Positions 21,513-51,618 of a stretch of DNA of 64,000 nt are shown here, in pieces. Source of the stretch: an uncultured bacterium (GTDB lineage Bacteria > Eisenbacteria > RBG-16-71-46 > CAIMUX01 > WJJG01); the NCBI GenBank assembly GCA_964417675.1, contig CAYQJL010000282.1, positions 68,077 through 132,076 of the forward strand, in the 5' to 3' direction. Under the pieces are notes generated by a model. It saw nothing but the letters and a program-made list of their open reading frames with translations, was not told the DNA's origin and made no database searches. The translations under genes and the position numbers were made by a program. Numbering within the stretch: position 1 is the first letter of the stretch; the number at the start of each line of letters is the position of its first letter.

Positions 21513-24500
21513 CTAGAAGTCGTAGCCGATCGACAGCTCACCCTTGGCCTTGCCCGCCCAGCGCGACAGCTCGCTGCGCCGCACCAGATCCCAACGCAGG
21601 ACGAAGATGCCGAGATTGACGGACGCGCGCAAGCCCACGGAAGCCCTCAGATCCTCGAGCAGTAGATCCCCACTGCCCTCGTCCGTCCGGAATGCGCGGA
21701 ACTGCTCGGGCTCATCCCAGGCCGCTCCCACGTCACAGAAGAGCGCCCCACGCACGCCACCGATCAACAGCGGCAGCGGCCAGGCCATGTAGAATGCTTC
21801 GATGAAGGGGAATCGAAACTCCAGATTCACGAACGCGATCTTGGCCCCGTAGAGCGGATGATCCGCGAATCCCCGCAGCGTGTAGGGCCCTCCGAAGATC
21901 AGCTTGCGATCCTCCTCGCCCCACTCGCCCGCAAACACGCCCCGCAGGGCCAAGGCGTAGTAACGATGAATGTTATGGTAGCGGCGGTAGTCCAGGGAGA
22001 ACCCGTATGAGGCCCGCTGCCCGATGGTCGCGTAGGCCGACGCACGTGAGCGGCGCCCGGCCAGTGGTCCGGTCGGCCCCCAGAGAGCGGAGTCATACAC
22101 CCAGGCCATCTCCGGGCGCAGATACCACGCATCGCTCTTGCGCTCGGTCCACCTGCAGTTCCAGGGATCGTTCGCACCCTCGTCGGCACAGGTGTAGAGG
22201 TAGCGTTTCTCCTGAACGATGTCGAGGCCGGCCTCGAACCGGCGGAACCGCGAGACCGAATGCAACCACACCGCCCGCATGCCCCGCAGAAGGCGCTGCT
22301 CGAAATCCTCCAGATAGCCCGGGACACCGCTGTACCCGTACCCCGTCCAGTACTGGTACAGACCGATGCCGAAGGAGGGCCGCGACCCCAGATCGCTGTA
22401 GGCAAGCAGGTAGTTGCCCTCTTCCAGGGAGCCGGCCACATCGAGGGCCAGCTGGAGGTTCTTCTCGCCCAGGATGTCGGAGAAGACGAGCATAGATTGG
22501 GCCAACACGCCGAAGCCCGACGCGTACAGGCCCCCGGCCTGGGCATAATCAATGGACAGGCGTGGTCTGTATGGCCGGTCTTCCACCTCGAGTGAGTCGG
22601 TCAGCTCGAACGTCTCCTCGTACAACGATCCAAGATCCACGTTCTTCGACGCGGGCGGATCAAACCGAACCGGCCGCGCCGGGGGTTCGGGCGGCACCGC
22701 CAGCGCGGCCGCCTCACCCTCCACCCCGATCTGGCCCGCGGACCCCTCGGCGGGATCCTCGACGGGACCCCGCGCGCAAGCTTCAGCAGAAGCCTCGGCG
22801 GGCCCCTCGGCGAAGGCCTCCCCAGCAGCCTGGTCGTCCCGCGATGCCCAGACCGTGGCCTGATCGAGGGCGCCTAACGGATCCCGCATCGCGTAGAGAT
22901 TCAATCCCCCGTCTTCGTACACGCTGAAGACGACCCGGTGGCCGTTGTCCGACAGGCTGGCCGCGGTGCCGGTCTCCGTGATGCCGGAGACCCCGGTCAT
23001 CAGGTCAGTGAGCTGGTAGTCCTGGTCGGTCTGCAGGTCGCGCACGAAAAGGTTGGCGGTGCCGGTGCGGTCCGAGACGAACAGGAGATGACGCCCGTCG
23101 GGAAACCACTGCGGGCTGACCTGCTTGCCGCTTTGATTCGGCAGCAGGTCCATGCGGCCGCTGCTCACGTCCAGCGTGGCAAGACGCCAGGGCGAGAAGG
23201 ACTCGTCTTCCCGCGCGCTCACGTAGCCCCGGTCGGTGACGAACACCAGGGTCGTGCCGTCCGGCGACCAGGCCGGCTGATCCGCCGACCAGCGGTCCTG
23301 CGTCAGCGCCGACACCCTGCCGCTCAAACGTTCGACCACATAGAGGTTCGAGCGCGCCTCGCGCAGGCCGACGAAGGCGATCCGGCGGCCGTCCGGTGAG
23401 AAACAGGGCGAGACCAACTCATCCACATCCGGCCGGTAACGTTCCACCACCTCCCGGGTGCGGACATTGACAACGATCAAGTGCTCGCGGCCACCGCTGC
23501 GCGTCACGAGAACGATGTGATCGCCGTCCGGCGCCCAATCGATCGCCGAGCGGAAGAAGCGAAAGGTCTCGAACTCCTCCTTCCGTTGGCCGCGCAGCAG
23601 GCGCCGTTCGTGGCTGCCATCCAGGGCCGAGGCCAGGTAGACGTCCGTGTAGAGAGACTCATCCGAGATGTAGACCATCTCGCCGCCACCGGGCGAAACC
23701 GCCGGGCTGATGTAGAAGGCGGCATGGCGTTCGGCGTGATTCGTGAGCCGACGTCCATAGGCGGAGGCCTTCTTGCGCCCCAGCAACTCCGGCAGGTAGC
23801 GATGTCTCAGCGTGTCGGCCCAATCCTCCGATAGCTTCGCAATCGTCAGTCCGATCGACTCCGACGTTCCACGCTCGAGGTTGTTGCGGCGGGCCAGCGA
23901 GCGAAACCACGCACCCAGCATCTCATCCCCGAACTGCTCCCCGATGTGCGCGACCAGCGACTGCCCGAACCGATACACGCGGATGTCGCCAACCCGCGCG
24001 AGCTGCTCCACACTGAGCAGGCCGCCGCTCATCAGCGCATCCCGCATCCACATCCGCGTATGATGGTTCATACCCGGTGTGCTGAGGTACTCGGCCATTC
24101 CCTCCATGACCCACAGCGGGGGCGCCCAGGCAATGGGATCCAACGACCGTCCGAAGCCGGAGGTGCTGAGGATGTCGATCTGAAACGCATGCACCAGCTC
24201 GTGGGTGATGACGTGATCGAGGTCCGCGTGGGATCCGGTGAATGGCACGACCACTCTGCGCTTGAGCAACTCGGTCACTCCGCTGGTGCCTTCACCGATC
24301 AACCCGCGGATGGCCCGGGTCTCACGGAATTCGGTCTGGGAGGCATAGAACAGGAAGGGAATCGGCTCGGCGATCTCGTGATCGAGAATCCGGCTCAGGC
24401 GCTCATAGGCGCGCTCTGCCAAGAATAGTGCTTCGAGGGCGGTCTCGCGCTCTTCCAGATAGTAGTGGAAGTCGAAGTTCGGACTGTGCAGGACGCGCCA

Positions 24501-24650
24501 ATCACGCTGGTGGCGGTCCACCTTGTTCTGACCAAACGCCTGTGCCTCCCCATCGGTCACGTTCATCAGCAGGGTGAGCGCCGCCAGCAGCAGTAGACGC
24601 AGACCATTGGCGCTTCCTGTCCGACCCATTCCCATTGGCCGCCTCCTCAT
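21513..24650 (-). CDS. Large secreted/outer-membrane protein: HExxH metalloprotease-like domain + TolB-like PD40 beta-propeller + C-terminal Omp85/surface-antigen-like beta-barrel
   Basis: Signal peptide from ATG 24650 (MRRRPMGMGRTGSANGLRLLLLAALTLL). HELVH zinc motif, PD40-type repeats (SPDGRRIAFV, SPDGTTLVFVTDR, FPDGRHLLFVSDRTG), and a C-terminus ending ...GELSIGYDF, typical of an OM beta-barrel terminal aromatic. The ORF is also open in-frame upstream through the 12-bp repeats to 25076. Confidence 0.75.
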   Translation of the reverse strand: MRRRPMGMGRTGSANGLRLLLLAALTLLMNVTDGEAQAFGQNKVDRHQRDWRVLHSPNFDFHYYLEERETALEALFLAERAYERLSRILDHEIAEPIPFLFYASQTEFRETRAIRGLIGEGTSGVTELLKRRVVVPFTGSHADLDHVITHELVHAFQIDILSTSGFGRSLDPIAWAPPLWVMEGMAEYLSTPGMNHHTRMWMRDALMSGGLLSVEQLARVGDIRVYRFGQSLVAHIGEQFGDEMLGAWFRSLARRNNLERGTSESIGLTIAKLSEDWADTLRHRYLPELLGRKKASAYGRRLTNHAERHAAFYISPAVSPGGGEMVYISDESLYTDVYLASALDGSHERRLLRGQRKEEFETFRFFRSAIDWAPDGDHIVLVTRSGGREHLIVVNVRTREVVERYRPDVDELVSPCFSPDGRRIAFVGLREARSNLYVVERLSGRVSALTQDRWSADQPAWSPDGTTLVFVTDRGYVSAREDESFSPWRLATLDVSSGRMDLLPNQSGKQVSPQWFPDGRHLLFVSDRTGTANLFVRDLQTDQDYQLTDLMTGVSGITETGTAASLSDNGHRVVFSVYEDGGLNLYAMRDPLGALDQATVWASRDDQAAGEAFAEGPAEASAEACARGPVEDPAEGSAGQIGVEGEAAALAVPPEPPARPVRFDPPASKNVDLGSLYEETFELTDSLEVEDRPYRPRLSIDYAQAGGLYASGFGVLAQSMLVFSDILGEKNLQLALDVAGSLEEGNYLLAYSDLGSRPSFGIGLYQYWTGYGYSGVPGYLEDFEQRLLRGMRAVWLHSVSRFRRFEAGLDIVQEKRYLYTCADEGANDPWNCRWTERKSDAWYLRPEMAWVYDSALWGPTGPLAGRRSRASAYATIGQRASYGFSLDYRRYHNIHRYYALALRGVFAGEWGEEDRKLIFGGPYTLRGFADHPLYGAKIAFVNLEFRFPFIEAFYMAWPLPLLIGGVRGALFCDVGAAWDEPEQFRAFRTDEGSGDLLLEDLRASVGLRASVNLGIFVLRWDLVRRSELSRWAGKAKGELSIGYDF

Positions 24651-24779
24651 GGCCTCATGCTCCAGGGCGCCCACCAGCGTCCCACCCCTGGCTGACGGGG
24701 GGACAATCCTCAGAAACCGCCGGAAAACAAACCAGTTCCGGATTGCACCGTTCCGGCTCAGGAATGAGGTTTCCAACTC

Positions 24780-24960
24780 CAGGCATGTCTTCAGGCACAT
24801 CTCCAGGCACCTGGCTAGGCACGTCTCCAGGCACACGTCTCCAGGCACGCGTCTGGGCACCTCTCCAGGCACGTCTCCAGGCACGTGTCTGGGCACCTCT
24901 CCAGACATGTGTCTAGGTGCGTGTCCAGGCACGTCTCCAGGCACGTGAGGCACGTGTGTG
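24780..24960. repeat. Imperfect 12-bp tandem repeat array (consensus AGGCACGTCTCC, about 14 units)
   Basis: Direct reading of the sequence. Intergenic, between the GGDEF gene stop (25115) and the protease gene start (24650). The array preserves reading frame (VPGD/VPRH tetrapeptide repeats in the six-frame ORF). Confidence 0.85.
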
Positions 24961-25114
24961 CGCATGTGTCTTTGCAGACTCGCAGGGTGACCCGAGGAGG
25001 TCAAGGGCGGGCATCGCCGAGCACAACAAGGCCGAGCAACCCCCCATCCATGCGGGCGGCTGTGACCGGAGCGCAACCGAAGGCCGGTGGGGTATGCACG
25101 GACGGGACGCGGAT

Positions 25115-35213: not shown

Positions 35214-35411
35214 CTACTGCAACCCGAGCTGACGGCGCACCTTGGTCGCATCCACGGCCGCCACCAGGGCTCCCTGGCGCAGCCGACGCTTGCGCTTACG
35301 GCTCTTGCGGGTCATGAGATGGCCCGCCCCGCTGCGGTGGCGGCGAATGCGCCCCGTCCCGGTCAGCTTGAACCGCTTCGCAGACGCGCGACGCGTCTTC
35401 AGTTTCGGCAT
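35214..35411 (-). CDS. rpmI: 50S ribosomal protein L35
   Basis: [32 protein letters not shown]. Start ATG 35411. Confidence 0.9.
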
Positions 35412-35464
35412 AGTCCTCTCCCCCTCTCTATGCACAGCAAAGATCTCTCTATCGCTGCCCGGAT

Positions 35465-35989
35465 CTAGCTGCTTGGCTTCGGCGCCACCATCATCGAGAG
35501 AAACCGCCCCTCGAGCCGGATGGGAACCTCAACCATCGCCACATCCTCCAGTTCCGCTTGGGCCTTGCGCAGCAAGTCCTCGCCGAGTTCCTTGTGCACG
35601 ATCTCACGACCGCGGAAGCGGACCGTGAATTTCACCTTGTCTCTCTTCTCGAGAAACTCACGGGCCTTGTTCAGCTTGGTCTGTAGGTCGTGGTCGCCGA
35701 TCTTCACACCCATCTTGACTTCTTTCAGATGGGTCTGGTGCGACTTCTGTTTCGCCTTCCGCTGGCGCTTCGAGAACTCGTACTTGTACTTGCCATAGTC
35801 CATGATCCGGCAGACGGGCGGGCGCGCATTGGCAGCCACTTGCACCAGATCGAGATCACGTTCCCGGGCCATCTTGAGGGCATCGGCTACGGTGATGATT
35901 CCAACCTGATTCCCGTCTTCATCCACGACACGGACCATCGGCGCCCGGATTTGCTCGTTCACCCGAGCCTTGGCGTCGTCCTTGCGAAT
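35465..35989 (-). CDS. infC: Translation initiation factor IF-3, probably starting at an ATT (AUU) codon
   Basis: IF-3 domains present ([15 protein letters not shown]). The ORF track starts at GTG 35962. However, the frame stays open upstream to an ATT at 35989 that is 8 nt downstream of a strong AAGGAGGA Shine-Dalgarno. An AUU start for infC is the conserved autoregulatory feature of this gene. Confidence 0.8.
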
Positions 35990-36264
35990 CGCCGGTTCCT
36001 CCTTGGGGCGGCGTACCTAGCCAACAAAAAAAGCGGCCTAGACCGCTTCTCAACGTACAGACACCCCCCGAGAACCGCCCTTGCATCTCGTGAGGCGTCC
36101 GGTGACCACGAAACCTGTCCCCTGTACCGTGGGGCGGTCGCGAGGCGAGAAGCGCATGTGCTTCTGCTTCGACAGGAGCACCTGCTCCCTGCATGTCAAT
36201 GGCAGCCCGCCTTGCGGGCCGCACCCCCCACCCGCGCTATGGATCGGATCCCGTGGGTGTGCCG
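35990..36264 (-). promoter_or_regulatory. Candidate L20-leader-type attenuator region upstream of infC-rpmI-rplT
   Basis: About 270 nt of structured, non-coding GC-rich leader between tRNA-Val and infC. It ends in an intrinsic terminator only about 30 nt before the infC start. This is the geometry of the Firmicutes L20 leader (Rfam RF00558), but the identification rests on position alone and has not been tested against the model. Confidence 0.35.
36021..36049 (-). terminator. Rho-independent terminator/attenuator hairpin followed by a T7 tract
   Basis: On the minus strand: AAGCGG-TCTAGG-CCGCTT followed by TTTTTTTG. Confidence 0.7.
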
Positions 36265-36338
36265 TGGGCGATACTGGAATCGAACCAGTGACCTCTTGCA
36301 TGTCAAGCAAGCACTCTAACCAACTGAGCTAATCGCCC
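36265..36338 (-). tRNA. tRNA-Val (anticodon GAC)
   Basis: Hand-folded: acceptor GGGCGAT/ATCGCCC, anticodon stem CTTGC/GCAAG, loop TTGACAT, T-loop GGTTCGATTCC. 74 nt. Confidence 0.85.
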
Positions 36339-36493
36339 GAACCCTTCCCCCTATGTCGGATGAAGGAACGAGTATCTTAGGGGAACATGCCTGAACCTGT
36401 CAACTACATGCTTTCGAAGCGCCTGCCCGGTCCCGTCCGGCCCGGATCCCGTCGGGCCCGGGATCGAATCCCATCCGCCCGTCGAGCCTGGGA

Positions 36494-37537
36494 TCAGATC
36501 ATGCGCACCGAAGCGGGCCCGGCGTCAGCCGCCTCGATCCGGCCCAGGCGGATCGCCCCCCACCCTTGCTCGGCCAGTCTCTGCTGCCATGGGCTGGCTA
36601 CGCTCGGGTCGACGACCAGGATCCAGCCGATTCCCATGTTGAAGACGTGATACATCTCGTCGGAATCCACCGCACCCAACTGCTGAATTGCCCGGAAGAT
36701 GGGGGGAATCTCCCAACTCGCGAGCTCGACGAGCGCCCTGACACCGTCCGGCAGCACGCGCTTCAGATTCCCCGGAATCCCGCCGCCGGTGATGTGTGCC
36801 ATCGCGTGCAGGCCTGGATCCTGCAAGAACCCCTCAACGGCCGGCCAATACAGGCGGTGCCGTGCAGCCAGAGCCCCGCCCACGGTCTCGTCCGACCCGG
36901 GCAGGAGGGCGTCCGGACCCGGTCCATCCTCGAGCAACACCTTGCGAGCCAGGCTGTAGCCATTGGTGTGCAGGCCCCAGGAGGCAAGCCCGATGAGTTG
37001 ATCACCAACCTTCACCCGCTCGCCCGGAAGGATATGGCGTCGTTGCACCCCACCGATGATGCACCCAACCAGGTCCACCTCTCCGGGCAGGTAGACGCCG
37101 GGCATCTCGGCCGTCTCGCCACCCAGCAGGGCGCACCCCGACTCTCGACAGGCCGCCGCCATACCCCGCCCGAGGGATTCGAGCACGTCGAGCTCCAGAC
37201 GATTGGTCCCGATGTAGTCGAGAAAGAAGAGCGGCCGGGCGCCGTGCACGAGTATGTCATCCACGCAGTGGGCGACAATGTCGTGGCCGGCGTTTTCCCA
37301 CAGCCCGGTCAGTCGGGCTATCTTCATCTTCGTGCCGACCCCGTCGATGCTTGCGATCAGCAGTTGCTCGCCCCCCGGCTGCGGATGGGCGAAGAATCCC
37401 CCGAAGCTGCCCAGGCCGCTCTCGACCCCCGGCGTACGGGTACTGGCGGCAAGCGGCTTCAAACGGTCGACGATCGCGTCGGCCACCTCGAGATCCACGC
37501 CGGCCTTCTTGTAGCTAGCTGCCCTTCCCTGGCTCAT
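36494..37537 (-). CDS. purM: Phosphoribosylformylglycinamidine cyclo-ligase (AIR synthase)
   Basis: Conserved PurM motifs (DGVGTK, GHDIVAHCVDDIL, GLHTNGYSL). Start ATG 37537 (MSQGRAASYKKAGVDL). Confidence 0.9.
   Translation of the reverse strand: MSQGRAASYKKAGVDLEVADAIVDRLKPLAASTRTPGVESGLGSFGGFFAHPQPGGEQLLIASIDGVGTKMKIARLTGLWENAGHDIVAHCVDDILVHGARPLFFLDYIGTNRLELDVLESLGRGMAAACRESGCALLGGETAEMPGVYLPGEVDLVGCIIGGVQRRHILPGERVKVGDQLIGLASWGLHTNGYSLARKVLLEDGPGPDALLPGSDETVGGALAARHRLYWPAVEGFLQDPGLHAMAHITGGGIPGNLKRVLPDGVRALVELASWEIPPIFRAIQQLGAVDSDEMYHVFNMGIGWILVVDPSVASPWQQRLAEQGWGAIRLGRIEAADAGPASVRMI

Positions 37538-49269: not shown

Positions 49270-51618
<2,349 letters not shown>

Follow-up and report, generated by a model that had tools for sequence, protein, structure and literature searches.

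What precedes infC, which encodes initiation factor IF-3, in a 64,000-nucleotide stretch of contig CAYQJL010000282.1 (the window, meaning the whole stretch), and from which codon is that gene translated? An initial annotation of this DNA had placed an attenuator resembling the L20 leader between tRNA-Val and infC and had proposed AUU as the infC start codon. The stretch from tRNA-Val to infC is likely homologous to the L20 leader of the Bacillus type (Rfam family RF00558), attenuating transcription of infC-rpmI-rplT, and infC of this high-GC bacterium very probably starts at AUU. Direct support comes from an operator that is homologous in sequence and structure and has covarying helices, from an intrinsic terminator, from the mutually exclusive pairing of operator and terminator strands with co-variation across the family, and from conservation of the AUU codon and its Shine-Dalgarno (SD) sequence. 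All window features named below lie on the minus strand, and coordinates are window positions unless a surveyed locus (prefix L) is named.

Homology and covariation of the L20 operator domain

An L20 operator domain was located at 36101 to 36177 by RF00558 (27.9 bits), by a covariance model built for this study and termed R1 (25.1 bits), and by covariation within the family. It contains the AA dimer (36169-36168), helix P1 (AGAAGC/GCUUCU, 36165-36160 with 36153-36148), helix P2 (36146-36141 with 36110-36105), and an inner hairpin, P2a (36139-36112). In the window, all 6 of the 6 P1 pairs and 5 of the 7 P2 pairs form, and the CC/GG pairs are present. The search with RF00558 that the initial annotation had suggested as a check returned a match over the full length of the model (positions 1-127; window 36175-36019), directly upstream of infC-rpmI-rplT and thus in the expected place and on the expected strand; its score is weighed below.

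R1 was derived from 16 operator domains of other loci, with the window and L001 (the locus whose IF-3 is 67% identical to that of the window) excluded and with P1, P2, and the inner hairpin annotated. A search of both strands of the 64-kb window (128 kb searched) gave a single match, at 36177-36101, with an E value of ~7e-7, R1 E values being rough owing to a shortened calibration. Among 160 infC loci from genomes and metagenomes, 43 matches were obtained (E < 1e-3), all of them 70 to 330 nt upstream of infC and on the coding strand, with none elsewhere in the surveyed loci. The operator was present in all 11 relatives fetched from the same lineage (IF-3 67 to 92% identical), at 26 to 39 bits, and in the ten closer ones (IF-3 70 to 92% identical) it scored 26 to 38 bits with the same synteny throughout. 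The single match and this conservation agree with the L20-leader-like attenuator first proposed, and the lack of leader conservation that the initial annotation had counted as evidence against it was not observed, the leader being kept in all 11.

Alignment of the 43 operators (alignment A4) showed 94.5% of cells paired, versus 78% in shuffles and 37 to 52% in slid controls, and 13 of the 17 pairs were changed on both sides; the alignment was fitted to the R1 model, which favors the structure. Invariant in A4 were the AA dimer, one G-C pair of P1, and two consecutive C-G pairs at the base of P2, and AAG was invariant in an alignment of 23 operators (A1). The published determinants of L20 recognition are the AA dimer and two consecutive G-C pairs (PMC7247131). 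Within the lineage, P2 occurs as GCCUCG/CGGGGC, GCCUCA/UGGGGC, GCCUCU/AGAGGC, and GCCUCG/CGAGGC. The register imposed by the Rfam model, in which P2 carries a 60-nt insertion and pairs UCGCCU with GGGCGG, was rejected, as L001 and the lineage show a local P2 (GCCUCG/CGUGGU) and a separate hairpin, P3.

Terminator and antiterminator

Between the operator and infC lies an intrinsic terminator, GAGAAGCGGU-CUAG-GCCGCUUUUU with a T7 run (36026 to 36051; stem 36051-36042 with 36037-36028, T7 at 36032-36026), with a predicted hairpin energy of -11.9 kcal/mol. The initial annotation had put a stem plus T7 about 30 nt upstream of infC; hairpin and T run stand, and the distance is revised, the T run ending 21 nt ahead of the SD sequence and 36 nt ahead of the ATT codon. 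An automated terminator scan missed the window hairpin, apparently through greedy extension of the stem into the T run, and folding showed it; the same scan found the equivalent hairpin in L001.

The terminator 5' strand, GAGAAGCG (36051-36044), is complementary to the P1 3' strand, CGCUUCUC (36154-36147), with a pairing energy of -14.6 kcal/mol. This antiterminator is contained in the minimum free energy (MFE) structure of a transcript truncated before the terminator 3' strand, the MFE structure of the complete leader contains the terminator, and the conformation combining P1, P2, P3, and the terminator lies within 0.2 kcal/mol of that MFE. The same relation has been reported for the Bacillus subtilis leader, in which read-through is the default (-16.9 versus -15 kcal/mol; PMC1865079). 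Of the operator-positive loci, 34 of the 43 checked, the window included, have a hairpin and T run between operator and infC, and in these 34 the operator pairs with its own terminator 5' half at a mean of -17.65 kcal/mol, versus -14.2 kcal/mol for cross-pairs (permutation test, P < 1e-4). Operator and terminator co-vary in Clostridia (CCAUCCGC with GCGGGUGG), in Actinomycetota-labeled loci (GCUGCUGC with GCAGCA), and in L167 and L171 (CGCCUC with GAGGCG).

That the hairpin and T7 run form the terminator of tRNA-Val, with the likeness of the intervening sequence to an L20 leader due to chance, is extremely unlikely. The hairpin is indeed the first terminator downstream of that tRNA, and no separate infC promoter was found; it nevertheless lies 212 nt beyond the tRNA, the sequence in between yields the sole R1 match of the window (E ~7e-7) and is kept in 11 relatives, where compensatory changes occur, and constitutive termination at this point would leave infC-rpmI-rplT without a promoter.

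Several results weigh against the reading of this stretch as an L20 leader attenuator. The RF00558 score (E = 0.0045 in a 1.2-kb search) is under half of the gathering score of 58.7, and a gathering-mode Rfam scan of the whole window gave no RF00558 match. Clostridial loci with obvious L20 leaders score 38.6 to 52.9 bits on this model and so also fall below its threshold, which is therefore uninformative outside Bacilli; L001 scores 31 bits at the same place. In P2 of the window, pair 1 is a G.U and pair 4 a U.U mismatch that recurs in L167. In the window taken alone, the antiterminator complementarity was not significant, being equaled by 8% of shuffles and ranking mid-range among cross-pairs, and it uses the conserved CUUCUC, which can pair with many terminators. 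The initial annotation had described a structured leader of roughly 270 nt after tRNA-Val; the length agrees (274 nt from tRNA-Val to ATT), and the structure as a whole folds no better than shuffles (z = -1.45; 20 of 200 shuffles folded at least as well), so that the evidence for structure is that of homology and covariation. L081, among the nearest relatives outside the lineage by IF-3, has an operator and no convincing T run, and the terminator call in L083 is dubious; the output of the operator may thus differ between lineages.

In neither of these two operator-positive loci (L081 2265-2501 and L083 259-500) is the operator followed by a convincing T run. L081 has a long GC-rich hairpin immediately before the SD sequence, and the output of its operator may be translational or Rho-dependent.

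Start codon of infC

Translated from ATT at 35989-35987, infC (35465 to 35989) has 174 codons, and the GTG chosen by the open reading frame (ORF) finder is codon 10. As had been stated in the initial annotation, the IF-3 frame is open upstream of that GTG, and it remains so from TAG 36019-36017 to GTG 35962-35960; the codons between the two are GTA CGC CGC CCC AAG GAG GAA CCG GCG ATT CGC AAG GAC GAC GCC AAG GCT CGG. ATT 35989-35987 is the sole near-cognate start in this interval, which contains no in-frame ATG, GTG, or TTG. The SD sequence AAGGAGGA (35997 to 36004) precedes ATT with a spacer of 7 nt, one less than first reported, and is predicted to form a duplex with the anti-SD of -11.2 kcal/mol, versus -3.5 kcal/mol for pairing before GTG. 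The ATT codon therefore stands at a proper SD distance and without a canonical alternative.

Comparison of infC starts among relatives, another of the checks proposed at the outset, placed an isoleucine codon at the same site in 12 of 12 lineage members (11 ATT, 1 ATC), 8 to 9 nt past the SD core and 8 to 9 codons ahead of the motif R-V/I-N-E-x-I-R. GTG 35962 encodes the V of this motif. Over a wider range, AUH (ATT, ATC, or ATA) was the in-frame candidate with the best SD at 137 of 156 infC loci from many phyla, and at 110 of the 114 with a strong SD. When any codon was allowed, ATH occupied the best-SD site 48 times in frame, versus 6 and 1 times in the two wrong frames. An AUU start is thus ordinary for infC.

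An IF-3 that begins at GTG 35962, with the open frame and ATT upstream left untranslated, is very unlikely. GTG is a canonical start, it was picked by gene callers (JGI and NCBI records list a product of 165 aa), and a weak AAGG lies 7 nt ahead of it. The predicted anti-SD pairing is, however, far weaker there than at ATT, and in relatives the callers give IF-3 lengths of 157, 165, or 176 aa, according to whichever canonical codon is near, an inconsistency that implies the lack of a good canonical start. Lineage members retain both the Arg codon preceding GTG and the Ile codon 9 codons upstream. Furthermore, GTG aligns with residue 6 of two solved IF-3 chains of 171 aa (5me0_Y and 5lmn_X) and with residue 15 of one of 180 aa (8jsg_A), so that every solved chain compared has residues ahead of the GTG position.

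The strength of the SD sequence, the conserved isoleucine codon, and the near-universality of AUH starts in infC give good support to the AUU start proposed in the initial annotation; such a start is the usual state of this gene and is overlooked by gene callers. As a consequence, the IF-3 start is wrongly annotated in every record of the lineage, at 157, 165, or 176 aa instead of 174. In Escherichia coli, AUU-dependent autoregulation of infC by IF-3 was reportedly described by Butler, Springer and Grunberg-Manago in 1987. The infC genes of E. coli and the window are alike in having an AUU initiation codon after a good SD sequence, a likeness of the codon only, and by analogy with E. coli the AUU of the window might likewise serve IF-3 autoregulation.

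Proposed mechanism and comparison with known L20 leaders

From these results we infer L20 binding, termination in vivo, IF-3 autoregulation, and cotranscription with the tRNA, and regulation would proceed as follows. Transcription would probably start at the promoter upstream of tRNA-Val, and the nascent leader would fold a hairpin termed P0 and then the L20 operator (AA dimer, P1, and P2 with its two invariant C-G pairs), which would mimic the L20 site of 23S rRNA. With free L20 scarce, the P1 3' strand CGCUUCUC would pair with the terminator 5' strand GAGAAGCG, no terminator would form, and polymerase would enter infC; with L20 in excess of its rRNA sites, the protein would lock P1 and P2, and the terminator would form and stop transcription at the T7 run. 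Read-through mRNA would be translated from AUU 35989, 7 nt past the strong SD sequence, where IF-3, if it acts as in E. coli, would discriminate against the noncanonical start and so repress its own synthesis.

The B. subtilis infC leader, the type represented by RF00558 (Choonee et al. 2007, PMC1865079), is likewise found upstream of infC-rpmI-rplT and shares with the window the AA dimer, a P1 of near-identical sequence, a P2 that encloses an inner hairpin and has two invariant C-G pairs, an intrinsic terminator preceded by an extra stem, and a non-AUG infC start. The window differs in that its host is a diderm of 66% GC, probably "Candidatus Eisenbacteria" and not a Firmicute, and in that its score falls below the RF00558 gathering score. 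Its leader follows tRNA-Val without a detectable promoter of its own, carries an additional covarying hairpin (P0) 5' of the operator, has a P3 loop motif (RGGCGG) that covaries in the lineage with a CCGCCY box beside the SD sequence, and uses as antiterminator the P1 3' strand itself, not mainly the P1 loop.

The L20 operator of E. coli rpmI-rplT, composed of a long-range pseudoknot and an irregular stem (PMC3616713), resembles that of the window in having L20 as effector, an operator that mimics rRNA, and an AA dimer. It also includes a long-range pairing near the ribosome-binding site, of which the pairing predicted between the P3 loop and the box beside the SD sequence is reminiscent. Unlike the window operator, it is situated between infC and rpmI and controls rpmI translation, not infC transcription. 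A search of 35300-36500 with Rfam gave no match to any other L20 family.

The likeness to the Bacillus type could also be due to convergence, the element binding L20 and attenuating transcription but having arisen independently from the 23S L20 site, as an analogue of RF00558. L20 leaders have arisen repeatedly, with cases in Gammaproteobacteria, Firmicutes, and a deltaproteobacterial candidate (PMC7247131, PMC3616713), the invariant nucleotides (AA dimer and CC/GG) are those that the protein dictates, and the host is phylogenetically distant from Firmicutes. The likeness nevertheless exceeds the nucleotides that contact the protein, extending to the order of elements, the P1 sequence (AAGCAGAAGC...GCUUCUC), the topology of P2 and P2a, the optional stem that precedes the terminator, and the antiterminator logic, and versions of intermediate score occur in several other lineages. 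R1 also gave no match to E. coli 23S rRNA (best score 3.2 bits, on the wrong strand), so that the shared operator sequence is not simply rRNA in the same linear arrangement. Convergence is therefore improbable. As a homologue of the Bacillus-type leader, the system adds to the host range rather than a new kind of leader, and the understanding of the mechanism is unchanged.

Lineage-specific hairpin P0 and a possible loop-box pairing

P0, CAGGGAGC-AGGU-GCUCCUG (36173 to 36191), lies just 5' of the AA dimer and is specific to the lineage. Compensatory changes in relatives, read by eye, gave GGAGC/GCUCC, GAAGC/GCUUC, GGGAC/GUCCC, GGGGC/GCCCC, and GGGGA/UCCCC, with P0 loops of 4 and 5 nt that MAFFT aligns in different registers. 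The transcript must begin upstream of P0, because P0 covaries as RNA. A conserved ACAU precedes P0, and P0 is absent from the Rfam model.

P3 (36059 to 36100) folds between operator and terminator, presents an apical GGGCGG (36080-36075), and corresponds to the "fourth stem" reported in >75% of L20 leaders (PMC3849166). Its loop is complementary to a CCGCCC box (36006 to 36011) located 1 nt 5' of the SD sequence AAGGAGGA and 4 nt 5' of its GGAGG core. The loop motif RGGCGG and the box CCGCCY were each kept in all 12 lineage members (the window, L001, and L164-L173), and the loop R matched the box Y in all 12 (7 G:C, 5 A:U), this terminal R:Y pair being the only independent evidence, as both segments were selected by motif. 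On a rough neighbor-joining tree, the A:U state appeared at three separate places, corresponding to at least two independent switches. Complementarity of P3 to the sequence after the terminator was not found in general among 26 loci outside the lineage (permutation test, P = 0.21); the loop-box pairing is lineage specific, with a possible analogue in L052.

This covariation suggests a long-range pairing across the terminator. By analogy with the long-range pseudoknot of E. coli, it may make translation initiation at AUU depend on the state of the L20 operator and, if the pairing of loop and ribosome-binding site is real, a single leader would act on both transcription and translation. Two other structures were considered and rejected. 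A local hairpin enclosing the SD sequence (CGCCG/CGGCG), present in the MFE structure, is not conserved in L001 or L165 and leaves the conserved box unexplained, and the loop-box helix as a second L20 site was set aside, the AA dimer beside the loop motif not being conserved.

Operon organization and promoter

The gene tRNA-Val(GAC) (36264 to 36338; 72.8 bits) follows purM (37675-36494) and a sigma 70-like site (TTGACA, 18 nt, TAAGAT; 36374 to 36403), a putative promoter by consensus match only and the sole promoter-like site between purM and infC. An equivalent promoter, TTGACA-17-TAACAT, is conserved in L001, where it and tRNA-Val(GAC) occupy positions 2603-2739 of the locus. In L001, and in all 8 lineage loci whose upstream DNA extends far enough, tRNA-Val(GAC) precedes the operator by 75 to 100 nt. 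Downstream of infC are rpmI (L35; 35214 to 35411, PF01632) and rplT (L20; 34768 to 35127, PF00453), which presumably encodes the effector that binds the operator, followed by zapB-like and zapA genes, a 6S RNA, and rny. The lineage shares the order purM-tRNA-Val-leader-infC-rpmI-rplT-zapB-zapA.

No promoter-like site was found between tRNA-Val and infC in the window or in L001, and tRNA-Val-infC-rpmI-rplT therefore appears to be one transcription unit; judged from the sequence, tRNA-Val and the leader-infC operon are probably cotranscribed, and the tRNA-Val promoter may drive this entire unit in the Eisenbacteria-like lineage. A candidate second promoter between tRNA-Val and the operator, with TTGACA at 36197-36192, was rejected, as it is followed by no -10 element and lacks conservation in L001.

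Host and distribution

The window, part of JGI metagenome contig MLSed_10000029, has a GC content of 66.2% and encodes an outer membrane efflux protein (OEP/TolC, 195 bits), TonB_C, ExbD, and an Omp85-domain protein, in accord with the high-GC diderm initially described. The nearest named homologues of UvrA (63 to 73% identity) and IF-3 (65 to 72%) all belong to "Candidatus Eisenbacteria," and the host is probably a member of that phylum, as far as these proteins indicate. A diderm Firmicute host (Limnochordia-like) was judged unlikely given these nearest named homologues; Bacillota UvrA is ~63% identical.

Outside the lineage, operator-positive loci carried the label Bacillota and, as labels of metagenome-assembled genomes, Acidimicrobiia, Gaiellales, Krumholzibacteriia, Hydrogenedentales, and Abyssobacteria. 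A narrow distribution, in Firmicutes, has been described for the B. subtilis-type L20 RNA (PMC6097659), and a few L20 leader homologues have been reported from Thermotogae and Actinobacteria (PMC3849166). Occurrence of the same L20 design in a candidate phylum of high-GC diderms, and apparently in several further phyla, extends this published range and bears on whether ribosomal protein leaders have been invented repeatedly or are old and divergent. The leader goes unannotated in the window because its score is below the Rfam threshold and, since that threshold is tuned to Bacilli, the Bacillus-type leader may have been overlooked outside Firmicutes. The initial annotation had regarded the attenuator and the AUU start in one high-GC diderm as notable; this holds moderately for a leader outside Firmicutes and does not hold for the AUU start, which is ordinary. 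That the Bacillus-type L20 leader is widespread and not a Firmicutes invention, and that the Eisenbacteria-like lineage has in addition a second leader output, form a joint proposition that is tentative and rather doubtful.

Weak R1 matches (5.6 to 11.6 bits, filters off) were observed in six Gemmatimonadota-type loci (L003, L006, L007, L050, L056, and L079), on the same strand and at the same relative position in 6 of 6, ~130 to 230 nt upstream of infC. These loci share the core AAGC-GGAG...CUCC-CACCU...GGGUU and may carry a divergent variant of the L20 operator.

Other features of the window

The 6S RNA (RF00013) lies at 33822-33643, between zapA and rny, and scored 50.3 bits, above its gathering score of 46.4; it was found at the same place in L001 (5073-5257), at 58.7 bits. 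An ORF of 1187 residues at 21513-25076 has an unusual architecture, in which PD40/WD40-like beta-propeller repeats are joined to an Omp85-type domain at the C terminus. A long homologue of ribosomal protein S1 (49270-51618; 782 residues as ORF), in which five S1 domains were scored, adjoins a cytidylate kinase-like ORF.

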